Shown piece by piece: positions 2,687-61,876 of a stretch of DNA of 64,000 bases. A model generated the notes under the pieces. That model was not told the origin of the DNA. It saw only the letters and a list, made by a program, of their open reading frames with translations, and did no database searches. Position numbers and translations under genes: made by a program. The stretch is from Phapecoctavirus DIJ07P2, in the sequence record OZ035771.1; one strand, given 5' to 3'. Each line of letters begins with the position of its first letter. Positions within the stretch are counted from its first letter, which is position 1.

Positions 2687-4711
2687 ATGAATTTAACAAG
2701 ACCTAATAGTGCGATAGCCGATCTGGTAGAAGCTACTTATCGAAAACGTCGCAGCTTTGAGGCAGGTTTTACATTACGTAATTCCCGTGAAGTTTTGCTG
2801 TTAGCAGCAGAAGGGAATTATTACCAATGGAAAGGAACTTTTCCTAAAGTAGTTCCAGCAAACTCTACGCCAGCCACCACAGGTGGTATTTCTTCCCTTG
2901 CATGGCAAAGTGTTGGGACCGCTGATGATATAGCAATTATCAATGCCAAGTTTACGGCAATGCAGCAACAGATTGATGATCTGTCGGAAACAATACCTGA
3001 AGCTGGTAAATCGGCTTATCAGATCGCACTTGATAATGGTTTTGTTGGAACAGAAGCACAATGGCTTGCTTCTTTGAAAGGGGATACTGGTGCTCAACTT
3101 AATATTAAAGGATCATTAGCAAGCACTAGTGAACTACCATCTACAGGTAACGTAGCAGGTGATGGTTATATTGTAGGAGATGTAATCTACGCGTGGGATG
3201 GGGCTGTTTGGAAACTTATTTCTTCTCTTGGACCAGAAGGGAAATCAGCTTACGAGGTATGGTTGGCAGAGGGTAATACAGGATCTGTTTATGACTTTCT
3301 TGCCTCTATAAAAGGTGATAAAGGAGACGTTGGTCCTACAGGTCCACAGGGTGCACCTGGTGTCAACGCTAATGGTTTTGATTACCGTGGAGATTTGCCT
3401 TCTACAAGTAACTTACCACAACCTAACTCTGAAAACGTAAGCCAAGCTTATTCTATTAATGGTAATCTTTATGTCTCTAATGGGACAGCTTGGGTCAACA
3501 TGGGTAATATTGTTGGTCCTCAAGGTCCACAAGGTGAGGCAGGTAAAGACGGTCTAGATGGAACAGATGGAGACGAAGGGAAATCTGCATATCGAAGTTG
3601 GCTGGACGCTGGTAATGAAGGGACAGAAGTAGATTTTATTGCCTCGCTTAAAGGTCCAAAAGGAGACAAGGGAGAGCAAGGAGAACGAGGACCACAAGGC
3701 GAATTAGGTCCACAAGGACCAGTGGGTGCAACAGGATCAGGTTTAGAGATTATCGGGGTTCTGAACAGCGAAGCTGAACTTCCTCCGACTGGAGAAGTAG
3801 GTGATGCATATAAAATTAATAATGATTTGTATGTTTGGGTTCAAGATGCTACAGAATGGATGAATGTTGGCAGTCTTGGAGGAACATCAATTACAGCCAA
3901 AGGTCATGTTCCGAACAGCGAGGCTCTCCCTGTTTATAATAACTATGGTGATGCCTACTTAACTGAAGACACTAGTAATCTTTACATCTATACCTACGAT
4001 CAAGACACCAATTCCGCATCTTTTGTTGACATGGGAAGTATTAAAGGTGACAAAGGTGAAAAAGGGGATAAAGGAGATAAGGGTGATCCTGGAACAAACG
4101 GAACCAACGGTACTGATGGGACCAACGGTAAGGACGGCGCACAGTGGTTTGTAGCAACAACTAATCCAGTCGCAGGAGATGGTGTTATCAATGATTACGC
4201 CTTCAATACTACCACTGGGGCAGTGTTTAAGAAAACGGACTCTTCTACGTGGACACTTATAGGAACTCTTCCTAGTATACCAGAAGCTCCTCAAGACGGG
4301 TTGACTTATGGTCGCTCTGATGGAGACTGGATAGAAATATCGGGGTCAGATCCTACGGAAGCTATAACACCAACTAGAGTTACAGCAGGTTTCATGGAAC
4401 TTGAAACAACTACTGCCAACTCTGGAGCATCTTGGACTCCTTCTGGAACTTCCAATATGTATGTTGTTACAGTAACTGACGCTTTGACAGTTGGAGCATG
4501 GCCTGGTGTTACGAGTTCTACAAAACCTAAAGCATTTTCAGCAATGATTTATTTGATTCAAGATACAACGGGACACACGGTTACACTAGATGCGTCTTAT
4601 GGAGCACTGAATGATACAGAAATAGCAACTACTGCTAACGCAGTAACAATTTTGCAATTAACGTATCCTGGTGTGGGTGATATCGTGGACATGGTTGTTG
4701 TAACACGATAG
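2687..4711 (+). CDS. tail fibre protein with collagen-like Gly-X-Y tracts and internal repeats
   Basis: ATG 2687 with SD taggagag; Gly-X-Y runs (KGDKGDVGPTGPQGAPG; KGPKGDKGEQGERGPQGELGPQGPVGATG; KGDKGEKGDKGDKGDPGTNGTNGTDGTNGKDG); 3-4 repeats of GKSAY..W...G..G...F.AS.KG. Confidence 0.6.
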   Translation: MNLTRPNSAIADLVEATYRKRRSFEAGFTLRNSREVLLLAAEGNYYQWKGTFPKVVPANSTPATTGGISSLAWQSVGTADDIAIINAKFTAMQQQIDDLSETIPEAGKSAYQIALDNGFVGTEAQWLASLKGDTGAQLNIKGSLASTSELPSTGNVAGDGYIVGDVIYAWDGAVWKLISSLGPEGKSAYEVWLAEGNTGSVYDFLASIKGDKGDVGPTGPQGAPGVNANGFDYRGDLPSTSNLPQPNSENVSQAYSINGNLYVSNGTAWVNMGNIVGPQGPQGEAGKDGLDGTDGDEGKSAYRSWLDAGNEGTEVDFIASLKGPKGDKGEQGERGPQGELGPQGPVGATGSGLEIIGVLNSEAELPPTGEVGDAYKINNDLYVWVQDATEWMNVGSLGGTSITAKGHVPNSEALPVYNNYGDAYLTEDTSNLYIYTYDQDTNSASFVDMGSIKGDKGEKGDKGDKGDPGTNGTNGTDGTNGKDGAQWFVATTNPVAGDGVINDYAFNTTTGAVFKKTDSSTWTLIGTLPSIPEAPQDGLTYGRSDGDWIEISGSDPTEAITPTRVTAGFMELETTTANSGASWTPSGTSNMYVVTVTDALTVGAWPGVTSSTKPKAFSAMIYLIQDTTGHTVTLDASYGALNDTEIATTANAVTILQLTYPGVGDIVDMVVVTR

Positions 4712-50167: not shown

Positions 50168-50222
50168 TATTTTAACTTTTTTCATTTTTAGAACAAAGGT
50201 GTCACTTTGTAGCACAGAAATA

Positions 50223-50260
50223 AGGCTCCTACAGCACCGTAGAGAGCCTATTATTTTGTC
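50223..50260 (+). terminator. rho-independent terminator after rightward early block
   Basis: aggctcctacagcaccgtagagagcct interrupted hairpin followed by attattttgtc. Confidence 0.5.
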
Positions 50261-50390
50261 CTATACAAACCCTTGTCTTTTTCAGTTTGCATCACTAGGA
50301 TTCGATCTGAGTGGGTTCCTGAAGGTCTGCCAATAAGATTAAAGGTTATCTCAAATTCCCACTACCTATTATCTCAAAAATCCCTCAAAT

Positions 50391-50596
50391 TATTTAAACT
50401 TTTTAAGAATTTACAAAAGTGAAAGTTGAAAACCAAAATTTAAAGTTTAGGAAAATTATCTTAAAATGTCAGATACAAAACAAAACTCAAAAGTCAAGGA
50501 AAATTTTAAAAATTTTGCGCGCCCACAGTATTTAAAGTTTTTTTGCTTTTACAAAAATGAAAGTACAAAAGCAAAATTTAAAGTTTACAAAAATTT
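50391..50596. repeat. AT-rich direct repeats (two ~65-bp copies plus a degenerate middle copy)
   Basis: tatttaaaCtttttaagaatttacaaaaGtgaaagt...caaaatttaaagttta versus tatttaaaGtttttttgcttttacaaaaAtgaaagt...caaaatttaaagttta. Confidence 0.6.
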
Positions 50597-50607
50597 ATGC
50601 AGATGGG

Positions 50608-50721
50608 AATGAGAAGAGTTCTCATATGGAAATGCAAATGATAATGATTCGCATTTAGGTTTATAAATGAGATTGATTCTTATTTGATAAGGTAAATGAT
50701 AATCATTCTCATTTAGAGAAT
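50608..50721. promoter_or_regulatory. cluster of palindromic TTCTCAT/ATGAGAA-type boxes resembling Fur boxes
   Basis: atgagaaGAGttctcat (perfect IR); aaatgataatgattcgcattt; aaatgataatcattctcatttagagaatg (cattctc-N5-gagaatg). Confidence 0.45.
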
Positions 50722-50972
50722 GACGCGCAGGGGCGGTGTTTGTCTCGCGCTCCCGTGTCCCCTCGCCATGTAATAAGAATAACAGATCCAGCCAGGAAAG
50801 CAAGCGATTATTTTATCTTTACATTTCTTTACAAATATATAGCGCCCAGCCTACCGGCGATCAACCTTCCAACCAGCGCCCTGGTATGTTAGCCCCGCCT
50901 TTACGCCGTGGGGGTGGCGCTTCCTCTTCTGTATGTAAAACAGTATAAGCCCGATCCCTGGGCTTGTCAAGA

Positions 50973-51239
50973 TTATTTTTTGTTTTCTTGCCAGGTTAGG
51001 ACACCTAGCCAAAAATGAATATCACCTTTTCCCCAATGTGGTATATTGCTTTCTTTCCCACCTTCACGCGCCCAGGTAAAACCGCCCGTGTAACTTTGTA
51101 ATTGATAACTATCCTCGACCTTATAATCTGATAGGTTGAGAACTGTTTCAACCTTTAAGCCCGTTGCGCTTGCTACCTGGTGCACCGTGCCGCCTTGCCA
51201 GCCCAATGAGTGCATAAGGTGTAATGTAGTATTTGTCAT
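50973..51239 (-). CDS. hypothetical protein (88 aa), isolated leftward gene
   Basis: track ORF; only weak SD; sits inside otherwise non-coding GC-rich island, so uncertain. Confidence 0.3.
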   Translation of the reverse strand: MTNTTLHLMHSLGWQGGTVHQVASATGLKVETVLNLSDYKVEDSYQLQSYTGGFTWAREGGKESNIPHWGKGDIHFWLGVLTWQENKK

Positions 51240-51348
51240 GGTGTCGCCCTTTCTTTGTTGTGCGCCCTGGTTGGCGCGGTAGAAAGATGATAGCCCTTTC
51301 CTTTATATATAGCAAGCAAAAAGAAAATAAAAAAGATTGAAAAAGTGA

Positions 51349-51406
51349 TTGACGTTCGCCAGGTGGCGGCATAATATTTACCACGTAGGGCGGCAATGGT
51401 GCCGCT
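51349..51406 (+). promoter_or_regulatory. early promoter + 5' stem-loop cassette, unit 1
   Basis: TTGACG, N16, ATAATA; ccacgtaggg then stem-loop ggcggcaATGGtgccgct; ATG 51427. Confidence 0.55.
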
Positions 51407-59517: not shown

Positions 59518-59937
59518 ATGAACATTAAATCAAATAATCCAGCTTACTCCTTCGATAACGCTTTTTGTCACGGTAGCGCCGCCAAAGGCTTCGAAATCGA
59601 TGGTAAATTGGTTATCGTGAACGTTGACGGGGAAGAGGTTGCAGTGTATCCGGTAAACGATGTTAAAAGCCGTTTACAATGCCGCATGGATGTTACCGCA
59701 TATCAGCTTGATCCGGTCCGTGTAGTTGCCCTGGTATTAGAGGAAGAGATCAAAGCAATGCATCACAGTAATAAGTTTATTGGTGACGCGCAGGATAATA
59801 TGAACGTTTGCCGCCATAAAGTTAATGAAGCATTGAAAGAATGCGGTTTTAAGGATCTGATGATTAAACGTGATGAAAAATTCCGCTTTCGTAATGACCT
59901 GGCAAACCGGATCTACTCAATCTATGAAGCTTTATAA
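59518..59937 (+). CDS. small early protein (139 aa)
   Basis: track ORF; SD aaagga. Confidence 0.5.
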   Translation: MNIKSNNPAYSFDNAFCHGSAAKGFEIDGKLVIVNVDGEEVAVYPVNDVKSRLQCRMDVTAYQLDPVRVVALVLEEEIKAMHHSNKFIGDAQDNMNVCRHKVNEALKECGFKDLMIKRDEKFRFRNDLANRIYSIYEAL

Positions 59938-59952
59938 TCGACAACAAAACAA

Positions 59953-59980
59953 GGGGCGCACAAAGCGCCCTTTCTTTTTG
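59953..59980 (+). terminator. rho-independent terminator (conserved caaggggcgcacaaagcgccc type)
   Basis: ggggcgcacaaagcgccc hairpin followed by tttctttttg. Confidence 0.6.
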
Positions 59981-60059
59981 CCCGAACAATGTTGATAGCT
60001 TTCGCCTATGAAAAACCGACACAGAACAAAACTGAATAAATCGCGGTATCGAGCTAATC

Positions 60060-60480
60060 AACCAGCAAACGAATAACCATACCTCCCAGGGTTACAGGCT
60101 GTTAGAGAGCCATTTAGAGCGGTTAAAATCGATCAACAACCAACAACAAACCATCAAAAACACCCTTTTACCTCCTTTCTAGTGCAATGATAACCATTAT
60201 CATCTACCCATGATTATCTATGCAATATAAGCGCATAATTATAATGTTGATAATAGTTCGCAACAACTAACCAACAAACAACATAAAACAATAAGCAAAC
60301 TAATCATAATCAAAGGAATAATAGCAAGATGATTGATAACGACAAACAATCGAACCATGATGAATACTAAGCAAGATAACGATAACACGACAAAACAACC
60401 AACTAACGAACAATAACAAACGAAACCATTAAAATAATAACTATTAGCAAAATAGTGCCTGAATGAAATCATTACAAAAC
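60060..60480. repeat. strand-biased A+C-rich (plus strand) non-coding tract with short caacaa/gataacga-type repeats
   Basis: plus strand nearly devoid of G and T runs, e.g. caaccaacaacaaaccatcaaaaacaccc and gataacgacaaacaatcgaacc / gataacgataacacgacaaaacaacc. Confidence 0.5.
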
Positions 60481-60507
60481 GAATCATTCACAGAGTCATC
60501 ATTAGCA

Positions 60508-60660
60508 CGCTATGCCGGACACATAGCGAGCTAATAATAAGCCAACTACACCCCAACAATCATAACCATCGGTGACGGTTATTTCTTGTTACTGCGTAGC
60601 TTGCAATAATTGCAAGCGTAATGACGCTTACACTTATTGCGCTGGCTTATTATTAGCATT
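60508..60660. repeat. nested inverted repeats (potential cruciform / large stem-loop)
   Basis: cgctatg-N7-catagcg (60508-60528); 14-bp arms gctaataataagcc (60530-60543) and ggcttattattagc (60644-60657) flanking perfect 19-bp palindrome gcttgcaataattgcaagc (60599-60617). Confidence 0.55.
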
Positions 60661-60964
60661 ATATGTAATTACCAAGATCATAACATTAGCGCAATAACAA
60701 TAGTCATTGTAATAATTACATGAGTTATCACTATCGTTCAGTGTGATCATCATTAGCACAGTGAATAATTGCACGTAGCAACATGAGCGAATAGCGACAG
60801 GTTGCATAGTGTGCACATAGTGTATAAACATACAAGAAAATAAAGGCTAATCTTTTGGGGGCGAATACTATCGCGTAGCGATATGTTGAGCACCTTCTCT
60901 TAAACGTAAATAAAATCAGAAAATTCTTGATTTATTTTAGTTTTTATGTTAATAAACGTTTAAA

Positions 60965-60983
60965 TAATAATCATTCTCATATA
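60965..60983. promoter_or_regulatory. TTCTCAT-type Fur-box-like site
   Basis: ataataatcattctcatat. Confidence 0.4.
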
Positions 60984-61140
60984 AATAATAGTCTGCTTGT
61001 CATGAGCGGGATTAGTTGACAATGTTCCGTCATATGATGAAGTTGCCAAGCCATTGATAAATAAGTGTTTGTGTGATTTATAATCAGGTGGCCCACCTTG
61101 TCGCTATGTTGGCATGAGCCTTGCATAAGTCATTGAATAC

Positions 61141-61166
61141 GAATGATAATTATTCTCATTCGCATG
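61141..61166. promoter_or_regulatory. TTCTCAT-type Fur-box-like palindromic site
   Basis: gaatgataattattctcattcgcatg (gaatga-N9-tcattc). Confidence 0.4.
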
Positions 61167-61501
61167 ATATTTGGGAATTGTCGCTGCGTGGACCTGACGG
61201 CCCGAAAATTCGCGTTAAGCACTTCTTACGTATACGCCATGATTTTTGCCATATGATATTGATTCTATTAGATATTCTTGCCATTATTGCCATGAAACAT
61301 GGTGTCCCGAAATAATCTCTCCCCGTAGATATTTTGGGTTACTTTTTATACAAGAGTGGGGTGTCAAAAATAATCAGTATATATGGGATAATTGATAGGA
61401 ATCCCCTATGATAATTCGATTGTAATTCCCTAAGATTGATCGTATGATGTTGGTGATTGATGATTGCCATGAAAGATGGCTAACGATGAGAGGAGATTGT
61501 C

Positions 61502-61876
61502 ATGCAAGAGAGTAAAAATGTTCCGTTGAGTAGTGCAACATTGCTTCGCTTCTATAAAGCATGGATTGCCAACTATCCTGCAATGAATCGCACAACGAGT
61601 GGCTTATGTGGTTGTCTGGTAGATTATGTAAATGATTTTGTTGGTGAGACAACTAGAGAAGAAGATAGAAGATGGCGGGATAGTTTGTTGGACCGTTTGA
61701 AATATGAAATGAGGAAACAATTTACATGTGCAGGGCTGGACTATAATCTTCCGTTCAATGCAGATTGCATGGATTACCTTTCAGAGTGTATAAACTTGGC
61801 GTGTCATACCAACACGTTACGTCTTCAGTGGGTGAAAGACAGAATTGAAGATGCAAATAATGCTTGCATTGAATAA
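61502..61876 (+). CDS. hypothetical protein (124 aa), Cys-rich
   Basis: track ORF; SD gagaggag. Confidence 0.5.
   Translation: MQESKNVPLSSATLLRFYKAWIANYPAMNRTTSGLCGCLVDYVNDFVGETTREEDRRWRDSLLDRLKYEMRKQFTCAGLDYNLPFNADCMDYLSECINLACHTNTLRLQWVKDRIEDANNACIE

Follow-up and report, generated by a model that had tools for sequence, protein, structure and literature searches.

A gene-free stretch as the very likely chromosome terminus of a Phapecoctavirus: terminal repeat, covarying multi-hairpin core, and Fur-like palindromes

The window analyzed here, 64,000 nucleotides of record OZ035771.1, belongs to a Phapecoctavirus genome that is 96–98% identical to genomes of the phAPEC8 group by genome comparison. 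Between a rightward array of early genes and the first left-end gene lies a stretch of ~1.5 kb (Table 1) that is left without annotation in the records of phAPEC8, Schickermooser, phi92, inny, phiWec188/186, and KP13-26, and the segment 60001–61000 has the lowest GC content (34.5%) of all 1-kb bins of the window. An earlier note on this DNA had recognized no convincing ORF in the 1.5 kb, a reading borne out by comparison with relatives, in which a conserved protein-coding frame was sought and none was found. The longest ORF, a hydrophobic 82-aa minus-strand frame at 60239–60487, is shortened to 45–50 aa in a metagenomic contig and in five phages closely related to this one (the set includes phAPEC8, ETEC-TG, DE16, L025, and L029), and a homologous ORF of at least 40 aa occurs in none of the other lineages compared. 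Protein coding is rejected because relatives have this ORF only in truncated form or lack it, and conservation extends to no other frame. Very small ORFs called in the gap by some pipelines are accordingly flagged as spurious. Searches for tRNA and tmRNA returned none, Rfam 15 (including the phi29 pRNA) gave no match in the 64-kb window at gathering thresholds, and across 59900–61600 Rfam yielded only two chance-level snoRNA matches (E about 0.6).

Table 1. Features of the non-coding region and its borders (window coordinates; a slash within a boundary motif marks the cut; DTR, direct terminal repeat)
Feature	Position	Strand	Remarks
Bidirectional intrinsic terminator	59951–59979	.	AAGGGGCGCACAAAGCGCCCTTT, then T-run; ends rightward early-gene array; scores on minus strand too
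Palindrome TGATAG-N7-CTATGA, left copy	59993–60011	.	Sole twin in window at 61393–61411
Conserved block AAATCGCGGTATCGAGCTAATCAA	60038–60061	+	Common even to Vequintavirinae (Av-05)
G-depleted, A+C-rich tract	60060–60480	+	Minus strand C-poor, G+T-rich
Fur-box-like palindrome 1, AATGATAACCATTATCAT	60186–60203	.	15/19 to E. coli Fur consensus; in all lineages, also Av-05
Conserved palindrome TATGCAATATAAGCGCATA	60219–60237		Follows palindrome 1
Half-box TTGATAATAGTTC	60247–60259		Follows TATGCAATATAAGCGCATA
Conserved multi-hairpin core	60494–60660	-	155–175 nt; fold, covariation
Core helices (plus-strand coordinates)	60508–15/60521–28; 60530–44/60643–57 (outer); 60545–59/60586–600; 60562–70/60574–82; 60603–19/60624–40		
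Variable spacer, core to DTR	60661–60888	.	ATTAGC/GCTAAT repeats; second TCATCATTAGCAC copy at 60747–59; GC hairpin before cut
Left DTR boundary motif GTTG/AGCAC	60885–60893	+	Cut between 60888 and 60889
DTR	60889–61217	.	328–329 bp, right limit 61216 or 61217; homology to relatives' repeats
Invariant TCTTGATTT in DTR	60925–60933	+	-35-like; no conserved -10 after it
Fur-box-like palindrome 2, AATAATAATCATTCTCAT	60963–60980	.	Inside DTR
Conserved block TTGCCAAGCCATTGAT in DTR	61043–61058	+	
Fur-box-like palindrome 3, AATGATAATTATTCTCAT	61142–61159	.	Inside DTR; flanks TAAGTCATTGAAT, GATATTTG conserved
Right DTR boundary motif GTTA/AGCAC	61214–61222	+	
Left-end leader	61218–61501	+	Upstream of first gene (ATG 61502, RBS AGGAG 61491)

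The terminator that closes the early-gene array is annotated in phAPEC8 and Schickermooser and kept in all nine of nine aligned lineages. TGATAG-N7-CTATGA, for which 0.66 sites would be expected in 64 kb, occurs twice; the two copies enclose the entire non-coding region and are each conserved across genera. The ~400-nt tract with reiterated CAACAA and GATAACGA-type motifs, described before as A+C-rich on the plus strand, is present as such: A+C amounts to 67.5% against a window mean of 50.9% (SD 3.6), or ~4.6 SD above it, with G at 11.6%, and the most A+C-biased 421-nt stretch of the whole window starts at 60141. Its motifs exceed the expectation for its length (CAACAA, 6 versus 1.4; GATAAC, 4 versus 0.6; GATAACGA, 2 versus 0.05). 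In every lineage G makes up 4–12% of the 300 nt that lead up to the core, so that the depletion is shared between genera while the sequence itself is not conserved, and the tract may serve as a structure-free spacer. An account of the strand bias by Chi sites or telomere-like logic was dropped, the orientation being wrong and no GCTGGTGG being present. In the variable spacer on the far side of the core, ATTAGC occurs 5 times versus 0.4 expected and GCTAAT 3 times versus 0.5, and a short GC hairpin (ATCGC-GTA-GCGAT, ~60869–81) lies just 5′ of the cut site, its sequence varying among lineages. The candidate genome-wide motif TTGCCATGAAAnATGG was set aside, having only two local copies.

Positions of the physical ends come from the records of relatives. 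Twelve listed records have one of their ends exactly at the position of 60889, and two more have one within 11–75 nt of it; the twelve represent 11 phages, one of them present in both GenBank and RefSeq. These positions are only partly independent, as some records were possibly re-oriented to a reference. In Schickermooser, the DTR of which has been published as 328 bp (PMC6563267), the first 329 bases are identical to the last 329. The Mt1B1_P17 record carries a 328-bp repeat at both ends, the phi92 record annotates a 343-bp DTR-L and DTR-R, and BME3 has a 342-bp DTR, determined by PhageTerm and present at both record ends; the boundaries in phi92 and BME3 are homologous to those in the window. 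The segment 60889–61217 aligns end to end with the repeats of Schickermooser and Mt1B1_P17 at ~97% identity. By comparison with these four Stephanstirmvirinae DTRs, the sequence is homologous, the boundaries are the same (…TGTTG/AGC… and …CGCGTTA/AGCAC), and the location is the same, within a 1.5–2-kb non-coding gap that runs from the rightward early array to the first left-end genes. Nothing essential differs: the window contains a single copy of the repeat, as expected of an assembly that is collapsed or circular, and it is without a homologue of phAPEC8_0018, which follows the repeat in most relatives. The start of the DE16 record, ~520 bp upstream of 59900, was also considered as a physical end and discarded, as it merely coincides with a gene boundary and the opposite end of the record carries no repeat. 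The motif GTTR/AGCAC stands at both DTR boundaries and is conserved in ~15 lineages, metagenomic ones included; two further copies elsewhere in the window imply that it is insufficient alone.

These comparisons make it very likely that the ~1.5 kb constitutes the chromosome terminus, or concatemer-junction region, of this Phapecoctavirus, and the ~97%-identical repeats of relatives strongly indicate that its physical ends are a short DTR at 60889–61216/7. It follows from this placement that 59938–60888 is a non-coding right-end arm and 61218–61501 the left-end leader of the first genes. The order of the right-end arm (bidirectional terminator, G-depleted tract, multi-hairpin core, variable spacer, DTR) is kept across 15 lineages. 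Among the cis-acting sites that the earlier note had proposed, a genome end and a terminase recognition site both draw strong support from the many record starts at 60889 and from the homologous 328–343 bp that the records of three relatives have at each end. That note was partly right; it missed the repeat itself and stressed the A+C tract and the nested inverted repeats, which belong to the right-end arm and lie 230–830 bp away from the DTR. The assignment shows annotators where Phapecoctavirus genomes should start and accounts for the unexplained "non-coding" box in rV5-type genome maps. The DTR is already known from relatives, and published Stephanstirmvirinae descriptions give repeat length only, with no boundary motif or flanking elements; that motif appears to be undescribed, as do the core and the Fur-like boxes. 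The roles proposed below for the core, the tract, and the boxes are suggested by position, conservation, and analogy.

The most elaborate element of the right-end arm is the multi-hairpin core. Its nested inverted repeats, listed in the earlier note, were all recovered at or within a few bases of the places given there: CGCTATG (60508–14) with CATAGCG (60522–28), 14-bp arms GCTAATAATAAGCC (60530–43) and GGCTTATTATTAGC (60644–57) separated by 100 bp, a 19-bp palindrome GCTTGCAATAATTGCAAGC at 60599–60617, and two copies of TCATCATTAGCAC at 60496 and 60747. The last helix of the core, 60603–19/60624–40, is an alternative to the invariant palindrome at 60599–617. Across the aligned lineages, 17 of 61 core pairs are changed on both sides. 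Core cells are paired in 93.3% of cases versus 26–52% in slid controls, with none of 500 shuffles as good, and the covariation score is 0.219 versus 0.093 for shuffles (again 0/500 as good) and at most 0.075 for slid controls. The fold also distinguishes the strands. As minus-strand RNA the core folds at -76.4 kcal/mol (z -7.35) versus -56.5 kcal/mol (z -5.8) for the plus strand, a difference of 20 kcal/mol, and its non-Watson-Crick cells comprise 105 G·U on the minus strand versus 1 on the plus strand; when counted as independent events, these G·U changes are few, about 6 versus 1. A structure derived from the plus strand contains 9 A·C or C·A cells versus 1 G·U. Because almost every mismatch reads as G·U when the minus strand is considered, the core probably acts as a minus-strand RNA or as single-stranded DNA, a reading drawn from its pattern of base changes. 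Pattern scans of IMG/VR, metagenomes, and GTDB genomes matched the core only in Stephanstirmvirinae-like contigs, apart from chance matches, and in 15 lineages it sits 182–329 bp left of the DTR.

These properties would suit a cis element that functions when one strand is folded on itself, for which two readings can be proposed. In the first, the core would be a fold-back/priming structure or a terminase loading site, serving repeat duplication and the initiation of packaging; in the second, it would belong to a leftward structured transcript. Developed further, the second reading makes the core the 5′ domain of a noncoding RNA transcribed from the minus strand, starting in the spacer or the DTR, passing through the G+U-rich tract, and ending at the bidirectional terminator near 59951, for a length of ~0.7–0.95 kb unless processed. 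Such an RNA could act in trans, for instance in packaging like the phi29 pRNA, or as a decoy or regulator of a host factor; it is compatible with the DTR assignment and competes only with the DNA-level cis-element reading of the core. The covarying helices, the almost exclusively minus-strand G·U mismatches, the stability of the minus-strand fold, the terminator that scores on the minus strand as well, and the lack of a conserved ORF are all consistent with it. Against it, a conserved promoter for the minus strand is absent upstream of the core, and the sole recurrent -10-like hexamer (AATAAT) falls within the outer helix, so that a transcript started from it would be without one outer-helix arm. 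Moreover, no Rfam family matches, a literature search found no transcriptome for the subfamily, DNA hairpins tolerate G·T pairs too, and the central palindrome keeps both of its 8-bp arms unchanged, a sign of sequence-specific recognition more than of structure alone. A long leftward RNA of this kind is on balance doubtful. The structured RNA locus suggested in the earlier note has a candidate in 60494–60660, supported by the covariation and the minus-strand G·U asymmetry, although no convincing promoter and no Rfam match accompany them.

The phi29 pRNA, a packaging RNA of ~170 nt encoded near the genome end, resembles the core in size, in its multi-helix fold, and in being encoded at most a few hundred bp from where the genome ends. 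The core differs in having no Rfam match and only a putative transcript, and it may act as DNA. The phi29 genome is, in addition, protein-primed and without terminal cutting.

A closer comparison is offered by the concatemer junction of T7 and T3, where a terminal repeat of 160–230 bp is flanked by the short-repeat arrays SRL and SRR and packaging signals lie at the right end. A "hairpin end" intermediate was reportedly described for these phages by Chung, Nardone, and Hinkle in 1990 (cited in PMC11482910). The Phapecoctavirus terminus likewise has a short, non-coding, exactly cut terminal repeat and a non-coding arm rich in repeats and inverted repeats on the right-end side. It shares with T7/T3 the need to duplicate the repeat during packaging and a T7-type primase-helicase, which here is a protein of phrog_239; of the signals of a T7-type junction, a hairpin-forming element on the right-end side and a T7-like replisome are thus both present. 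In contrast, the sequences are not homologous, and the Phapecoctavirus is a 150-kb myovirus that has no promoters for a phage RNA polymerase. Its structured element is also the larger one, with five helices in ~160 nt, and stands ~230 bp away from the repeat; hairpin ends would be hypothetical here. By this analogy, replication would produce concatemers with one DTR per junction, and a terminase or associated nuclease would read the boundary motifs together with flanking context, cutting or nicking precisely there. The DTR would then be duplicated for each unit, as in exact-cut packaging of the T7/T3 type, so that virion DNA carries it at both ends. The boundary motifs are direct, with the same orientation, and by themselves leave the duplication of the repeat unexplained. 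Packaging by the cos or headful route is acknowledged to be better understood than the way in which terminase makes exact, terminally redundant genomes from concatemers (PMC13595956). The subfamily offers compact, conserved candidate cis signals in the form of a shared cut-site motif, a covarying strand-specific fold, and bracketing palindromes.

Two further elements lie within the DTR itself. The TTCTCAT-type boxes that the earlier note had placed at 60965 and 61141 proved to be 18-bp palindromes (60963–80 and 61142–59), joined by a third at 60186–203, and to be members of a seven-member palindrome family that resembles Fur operators; the family has 12 matches in the window versus 0.46 expected, a number reached by none of 100 shuffles. 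Measured against the 19-bp E. coli Fur consensus GATAATGATAATCATTATC, the window boxes match at 14–16 of 19 positions; in phi92-like phages the box at the 60963 position is a perfect TGATAATCATTATCA, and the phi92 DTR box matches at 17 of 19 by manual count. Against the 7-1-7 unit TGATAATnATTATCA, the boxes have 1–2 mismatches. At up to five mismatches, the Fur consensus has 21 matches in the window versus 3.4 ± 2.1 at random, 11 of them in two non-coding regions. BLAST of one box against 5,426 E. coli genomes, with a query too short for statistics, pointed to four places (two pairs with identical alignment statistics). The only informative one, which is the best chromosomal match of the 60963 box, lies 34 nt upstream of irp2, the promoter of which binds Fur (PMC11225919). 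The three 18-bp palindromes may be operators to which a dimeric regulator binds, host Fur being the most plausible one, and would then control promoters in and adjoining the DTR. Compared with known E. coli Fur operators, these predicted sites stand in the terminal repeat and non-coding arms of a virulent phage rather than at an iron-uptake promoter, several copies carry G/C for T/A at one half-site position, and no clear promoter overlaps them.

The substituted half-site position also lends itself to a different explanation, in which the phage itself encodes a dimeric repressor that uses the boxes as operators to switch terminal and early promoters, their likeness to Fur sites being convergent AT-rich symmetry. 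In several copies, each half-site of the family consensus AATGAGAAT-N-ATTCTCATT departs from TGATAAT-N-ATTATCA at one position, a phased 29-bp array of four copies is found at 50608–50713, and in Klebsiella phage KP13-26 an unrelated palindrome replaces the 60963 box. However, several copies agree with the Fur consensus at 14–17 of 19 positions, up to the perfect TGATAATCATTATCA of the phi92-like DTR box, the best E. coli match falls in a Fur-binding promoter, and no candidate repressor was identified in the phage. A dedicated phage repressor is therefore possible and not favored. If the boxes truly bind Fur, this virulent coliphage of the therapeutic type would, unusually, sense the iron status of its host; genuine Fur operators in the DTR would tie early transcription or end processing to that status. 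It seems rather unlikely that two propositions hold jointly, namely that the core is a new packaging or replication cofactor (either a structured RNA from the minus strand or single-stranded DNA that folds back and primes repeat duplication) and that the DTR contains genuine host Fur operators.

A replication origin, also among the earlier proposals, has little specific support. The region, especially the AT-rich, G-poor tract with its hairpins, could in principle serve as a secondary origin at the terminus, comparable to T7 phiOR/phiOL, or as a site where the T7-type primase-helicase initiates on single-stranded DNA, and the GC minimum, the repeated short motifs (GATAAC, ATTAGC), the strand preference of the folded element, and the T7-like primase-helicase itself would fit this view. 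An iteron-type origin calls for a regular array as well as AT-richness, and the repeats here are irregular, with no regularly spaced iterons. The tract sequence differs between genera, and the turns of GC skew in the window track gene orientation rather than this region. A better iteron-like candidate lies at 50168–51350, where 72-nt repeats accompany the four palindromes at 29-bp spacing noted above, making origin function at the terminus improbable.

On the far side of the DTR lies the leader of the first genes. In four lineages, scans of the region for sigma-70 promoters counted no more sites than shuffled sequences would give, and on neither strand did a promoter keep its position across lineages. 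The "PHIRE promoters" of phAPEC8 were considered as a phage-specific promoter motif and rejected, since they are actually a 5′-UTR hairpin, GGCGGCAATGGTGCCGCC, downstream of sigma-70-type promoters; this hairpin does not occur in the 1.5-kb region. The repeated TGCCAT motifs reported earlier at 61250–61480 are there (4 versus 0.6 expected), in company with TTGCCA(T) -35-like hexamers at 61246, 61278, 61287, and 61464. One promoter-like site, TTGCCA-18-AATAAT, spans 61287–61316. The leader also contains a 17-nt repeat, ATTGCCATGAAAsATGG, at 61286 and 61463, and a conserved block at 61361–61411 that includes the second TGATAG-N7-CTATGA palindrome.

By sequence relatedness the phage is a member of the genus Phapecoctavirus, subfamily Stephanstirmvirinae; a megablast search with 59900-61600 returned 79 phage records, led by phAPEC8-like coliphages at 96-98% identity. 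The non-coding region lies between a phAPEC8_0017 homologue, which has an annotated terminator behind it, and the genes that open the next rightward array, and this gap of 1.5-2 kb carries no annotation in phAPEC8, Schickermooser, phi92, inny, phiWec188/186 or KP13-26. A few automatic annotations place ORFs of 30-70 codons in it. All elements that an earlier note had listed from the sequence alone are present, and its view that the region holds no convincing ORF stands, as no protein frame is conserved in relatives. The longest ORF, 82 minus-strand codons encoding a hydrophobic peptide (MIRFVMISF…), is shortened to 45-50 codons in phAPEC8, ETEC-TG, DE16 and two metagenomic relatives, and a homologous frame of at least 40 codons was found in no other lineage compared; it is ruled out as a gene, being a compositional by-product of the G+T-rich minus strand without conservation. 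Its resemblance to a membrane protein makes it an annotation trap. A 345-bp gene that many relatives carry after the terminal repeat (phAPEC8_0018/Schickermooser_00001) is absent from the window at 61502-61534, where the alignment to Schickermooser skips from 646 to 954 (sequence L007, 614-958 compared). Phapecoctavirus/Justusliebigvirus records with odd host names (Campylobacter phage B15/A145/A150/C3, Pseudomonas phage PsgM04F, an Acinetobacter phage and Dompiswa phage TSP7_1) are 79-95% identical to the coliphage region over matched stretches, and their host labels look doubtful.

Genome ends were mapped by comparing a 700-nt query (60800-61500) with phage records. Among the matches listed, 12 records from 11 phages start or end exactly at 60889 (Ro121lw, Mt1B1_P17, three SA_NWU phages, WPEC1/2/4/6, Schickermooser in both GenBank and RefSeq, and BI-EHEC), and most of them give a second match within the same record. 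The first 329 bases of Schickermooser equal its last 329 and align to 60889-61217, the published terminal repeat being 328 bp (PMC6563267), while the two ends of Mt1B1_P17 share 328 identical bases that align to 61216-60889. Within the sister genus, direct terminal repeats of 343 bp are annotated at the left and right in the record of phi92, and the BME3 repeat is 342 bp by PhageTerm (PMC12210895). Boundaries are homologous across these four phages, reading …(A/T)TGTTG|AGC… on the left and …CGCGTTA|AGCAC… on the right. Shared ends and homologous boundaries thus identify, by homology, the direct terminal repeat (DTR) of Phapecoctavirus DIJ07P2, and with it a right-end non-coding arm and a left-end leader; the earlier suggestion of a genome end is borne out to the extent that the physical ends, as judged from relatives, fall inside the region. 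Stephanstirmvirinae genomes "terminate with direct terminal repeats" (PMC12695924), and a DTR with two non-coding arms is already known biology for the group and the ordinary main explanation of the region. In the BME3 record (L005/L006, PP239276.1), which has N's, the first 788 nt recur at 146169-146956, besides the 342-nt repeat at the record end, and the annotated 'DTR-L' (146957-147298) coincides with neither copy, probably an assembly or annotation artefact.

A shared cut-site motif, a strand-specific covarying core and Fur-like operators in the repeat appear to be undescribed secondary features. They are experimentally tractable and bear on the making of exact terminally redundant genomes, called poorly understood by field reviewers (PMC13595956).

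Coordinates of features in and around the non-coding region (window positions unless stated)
Feature	Position	Detail
phAPEC8_0017 homologue	59518-59937	left neighbour
Right-end non-coding arm	59938-60888	by homology
Bidirectional terminator	59951-79	
TGATAG-N7-CTATGA palindrome	59993, 61393	
A+C-rich tract	60060-60480	67.5% A+C, G 11.6%
AATGAkAATnATTCTCAT boxes 1, 2, 3	60186, 60963, 61142	right arm (1), within DTR (2, 3)
82-codon ORF	60239-60487	minus strand
Folded core	60494-60660	
Boundary nonamers	60885-93, 61214-22	GTTG|AGCAC, GTTA|AGCAC
DTR	60889-61216/7	by homology
Left-end leader	61218-61501	by homology
17-nt repeat	61286, 61463	ATTGCCATGAAAsATGG
Promoter-like site	61287-61316	TTGCCA-18-AATAAT
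Conserved leader block	61361-61411	
First ATG of next array	61502	right neighbour
Second non-coding region	50168-51350	1.2 kb
Four boxes, exact 29-bp spacing	50608-50713	starts 50608, 50637, 50666, 50695
PHIRE hairpin	~51340-51400	repeats near 51372, 51653, 52899, 53547, 54679, 55000, 58270
PHIRE hairpin, sequence L001	556-575, 937-956, 1787-1806, 3202-3221	

The same nonamer stands in the same orientation at both DTR boundaries, and is present there in Phapecoctavirus, the phiWec group, phi92-like phages, Klebsiella phages and metagenomic lineages; the boundary motifs predict repeats of 329-480 bp in 15 lineages. Four matches occur in the window against 1.08 expected, and because the two non-boundary copies lie elsewhere, on the other strand, the nonamer cannot by itself suffice for recognition. 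A short GC hairpin of lineage-dependent sequence (ATCGC-GTA-GCGAT here, CCGCC-ACA-GGCGG in Schickermooser, GCCCAC-GAA-GTGGGC in KP13-26) precedes the left cut site by a few bases. No mention of the motif or this hairpin was found in the published descriptions consulted. KP13-26 (L013) offers two candidate left boundaries, a hairpin followed by TATTGTTGAGCAC (~3050-3075) and later ATGTTGAGCC (~3300), so its true repeat length is uncertain; it also has an unrelated palindrome, CCACTGTTCACTTATACAGTGG, in place of box 2.

Right-arm architecture is kept in 15 lineages: terminator, TGATAG-N7-CTATGA palindrome, G-depleted tract, core (154-175 nt, 494-658 bp from the terminator), variable spacer (182-329 bp) and DTR. 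The palindrome has just two copies in the 64 kb, which bracket the whole non-coding region and are both conserved across genera. The tract, reported earlier as A+C-rich, includes the window-wide A+C maximum for 421-nt windows (mean 50.9%, sd 3.6), and the reiterated CAACAA, GATAAC(GA), ATTAGC and TGCCAT motifs of the region are 4- to 40-fold above length expectation. Its sequence is unrelated between genera while G depletion is universal (4-12% G in the 300 nt preceding the core), which indicates that the conserved property is a structure-poor strand with C over G, not the CAACAA motifs.

The nested inverted repeats described earlier correspond to the conserved folded core, which is 98-100% identical within Phapecoctavirus against 92-97% for its flanks; phi92-like and Klebsiella phages have it at 73-82% identity. 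Pattern scans of IMG/VR, metagenomes and GTDB found it elsewhere only in Stephanstirmvirinae-like contigs. RNAalifold on 18 distinct sequences predicts helices with 12 doubly changed pairs on either strand. In its minus-strand minimum-free-energy structure the window core forms five helices with 61 pairs in total; the structure is 93.3% paired across the alignment, a figure that falls to 26-52% with partners slid. In 17 core pairs both sides have changed, and shuffles give a covariation score of 0.093 where the real alignment gives 0.219 (0/500 as high). Compensatory changes convert CGCTATG/CATAGCG to CGCTACG/CGTAGCG or GCCTATG/CATAGGC, vary the inner ends of the 14-bp arms (AAGCC/GGCTT, AACGC/GCGTT, ACCGC/GCGGT, AACAC/GTGTT), and replace the small hairpin ATAACCATC…GATGGTTAT by GTGACTATT…AATAGTCAC or GGAATAATC…GATTATCCC. 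The 19-bp palindrome keeps its 8-bp arms unchanged in all aligned sequences, which argues for sequence-specific recognition of this central part. Non-Watson-Crick cells comprise 105 G·U on the minus strand versus 1 on the plus, a count biased by derivation of the structure from the minus strand; the plus-derived structure shows the same trend (9 A·C or C·A cells versus 1 G·U), and independent wobble events number roughly six versus one. The minus strand also folds 20 kcal/mol better (-76.4 kcal/mol, z -7.35, versus -56.5, z -5.8). Wobble bias and folding energy together indicate that selection probably acts on the core as a folded minus-polarity single strand, RNA or DNA.

The preferred reading is that the core is a candidate cis-acting element for end processing or packaging, consistent with its constant position left of the cut site and with the T7-type primase-helicase encoded by the phage. 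In T7, Chung, Nardone and Hinkle (1990, as cited in PMC11482910) reportedly proposed a hairpin end adjoining the concatemer junction as a processing intermediate; here, the folded core lies left of the DTR. That the core is, at least also, a transcript seems rather unlikely: the terminator scores on the minus strand too and the region lacks a coding frame, but sigma-70-like sites do not exceed chance numbers in any of four lineages, no minus-strand promoter is positionally conserved upstream, the sole recurrent -10-like hexamer falls within the outer helix, and an Rfam search of the region matched no family. No transcriptome for Stephanstirmvirinae was found in the literature.

The TTCTCAT boxes of the earlier note are members of a family of 18-bp palindromes that matches the window 12 times, where 0.46 matches would be expected. 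The palindrome coincides with the Fur 7-1-7 unit TGATAATnATTATCA; window boxes match the E. coli Fur consensus GATAATGATAATCATTATC at 14-16 of 19 positions, and the DTR box of phi92-like phages is a perfect TGATAATCATTATCA. With up to 5 mismatches, the consensus occurs 21 times in the window versus 3.4±2.1 in Markov-1 random sequence, 11 of the 21 falling in the two non-coding regions. In 5,426 E. coli genomes the sequence most like the DTR box sits 34 nt upstream of irp2, whose promoter has been shown to bind Fur (PMC11225919). Consensus scores, enrichment and the irp2 match make host Fur a serious candidate regulator; alternatively, the boxes may be operators for a phage-encoded repressor.

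That the region is a replication origin seems unlikely: it has the lowest GC of the window, but it lacks regular iterons, its AT-rich part shows no sequence conservation, and the second non-coding region is a better candidate. The latter sits just before the first early promoter (near 51340) and holds an AT-rich array of TTTAAAGTTT/TTTACAAAA repeats, including a 72-nt unit present twice (82% identical), then four boxes of the same family; it is a candidate origin or operator array. Box 1 is present also in Av-05 (Vequintavirinae), whose analogous 1.9-kb gene-free region (L046, KM190144.1, 2472-4388) has in common a terminator, a AAACGCGGTATCGAGCTAA block, an A+C-rich stretch and Fur-like boxes; its long inverted repeats differ (GCGACACAATAACGC/GCGTTATTGTGTCGC). 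The rV5 paper labels its own comparable region only 'non-coding'.

In the left-end leader, the tgccat repeats noted earlier are -35-like TTGCCA(T) hexamers, one of which forms the only 10/12 promoter-like site in the region. The hairpin-containing 17-nt repeat occurs nowhere else in the window; it and the hexamers are Phapecoctavirus-specific, and the leader block is conserved across genera. The 20-bp 'PHIRE promoters' of the phAPEC8 annotation are a conserved hairpin, GTAGGGCGGCAATGGTGCCGCC, directly downstream of sigma-70-type promoters (TTGACA-17-TAATAT). Its place 3' of those promoters marks it as a reiterated 5'-UTR stem-loop of early transcripts, not as a promoter.
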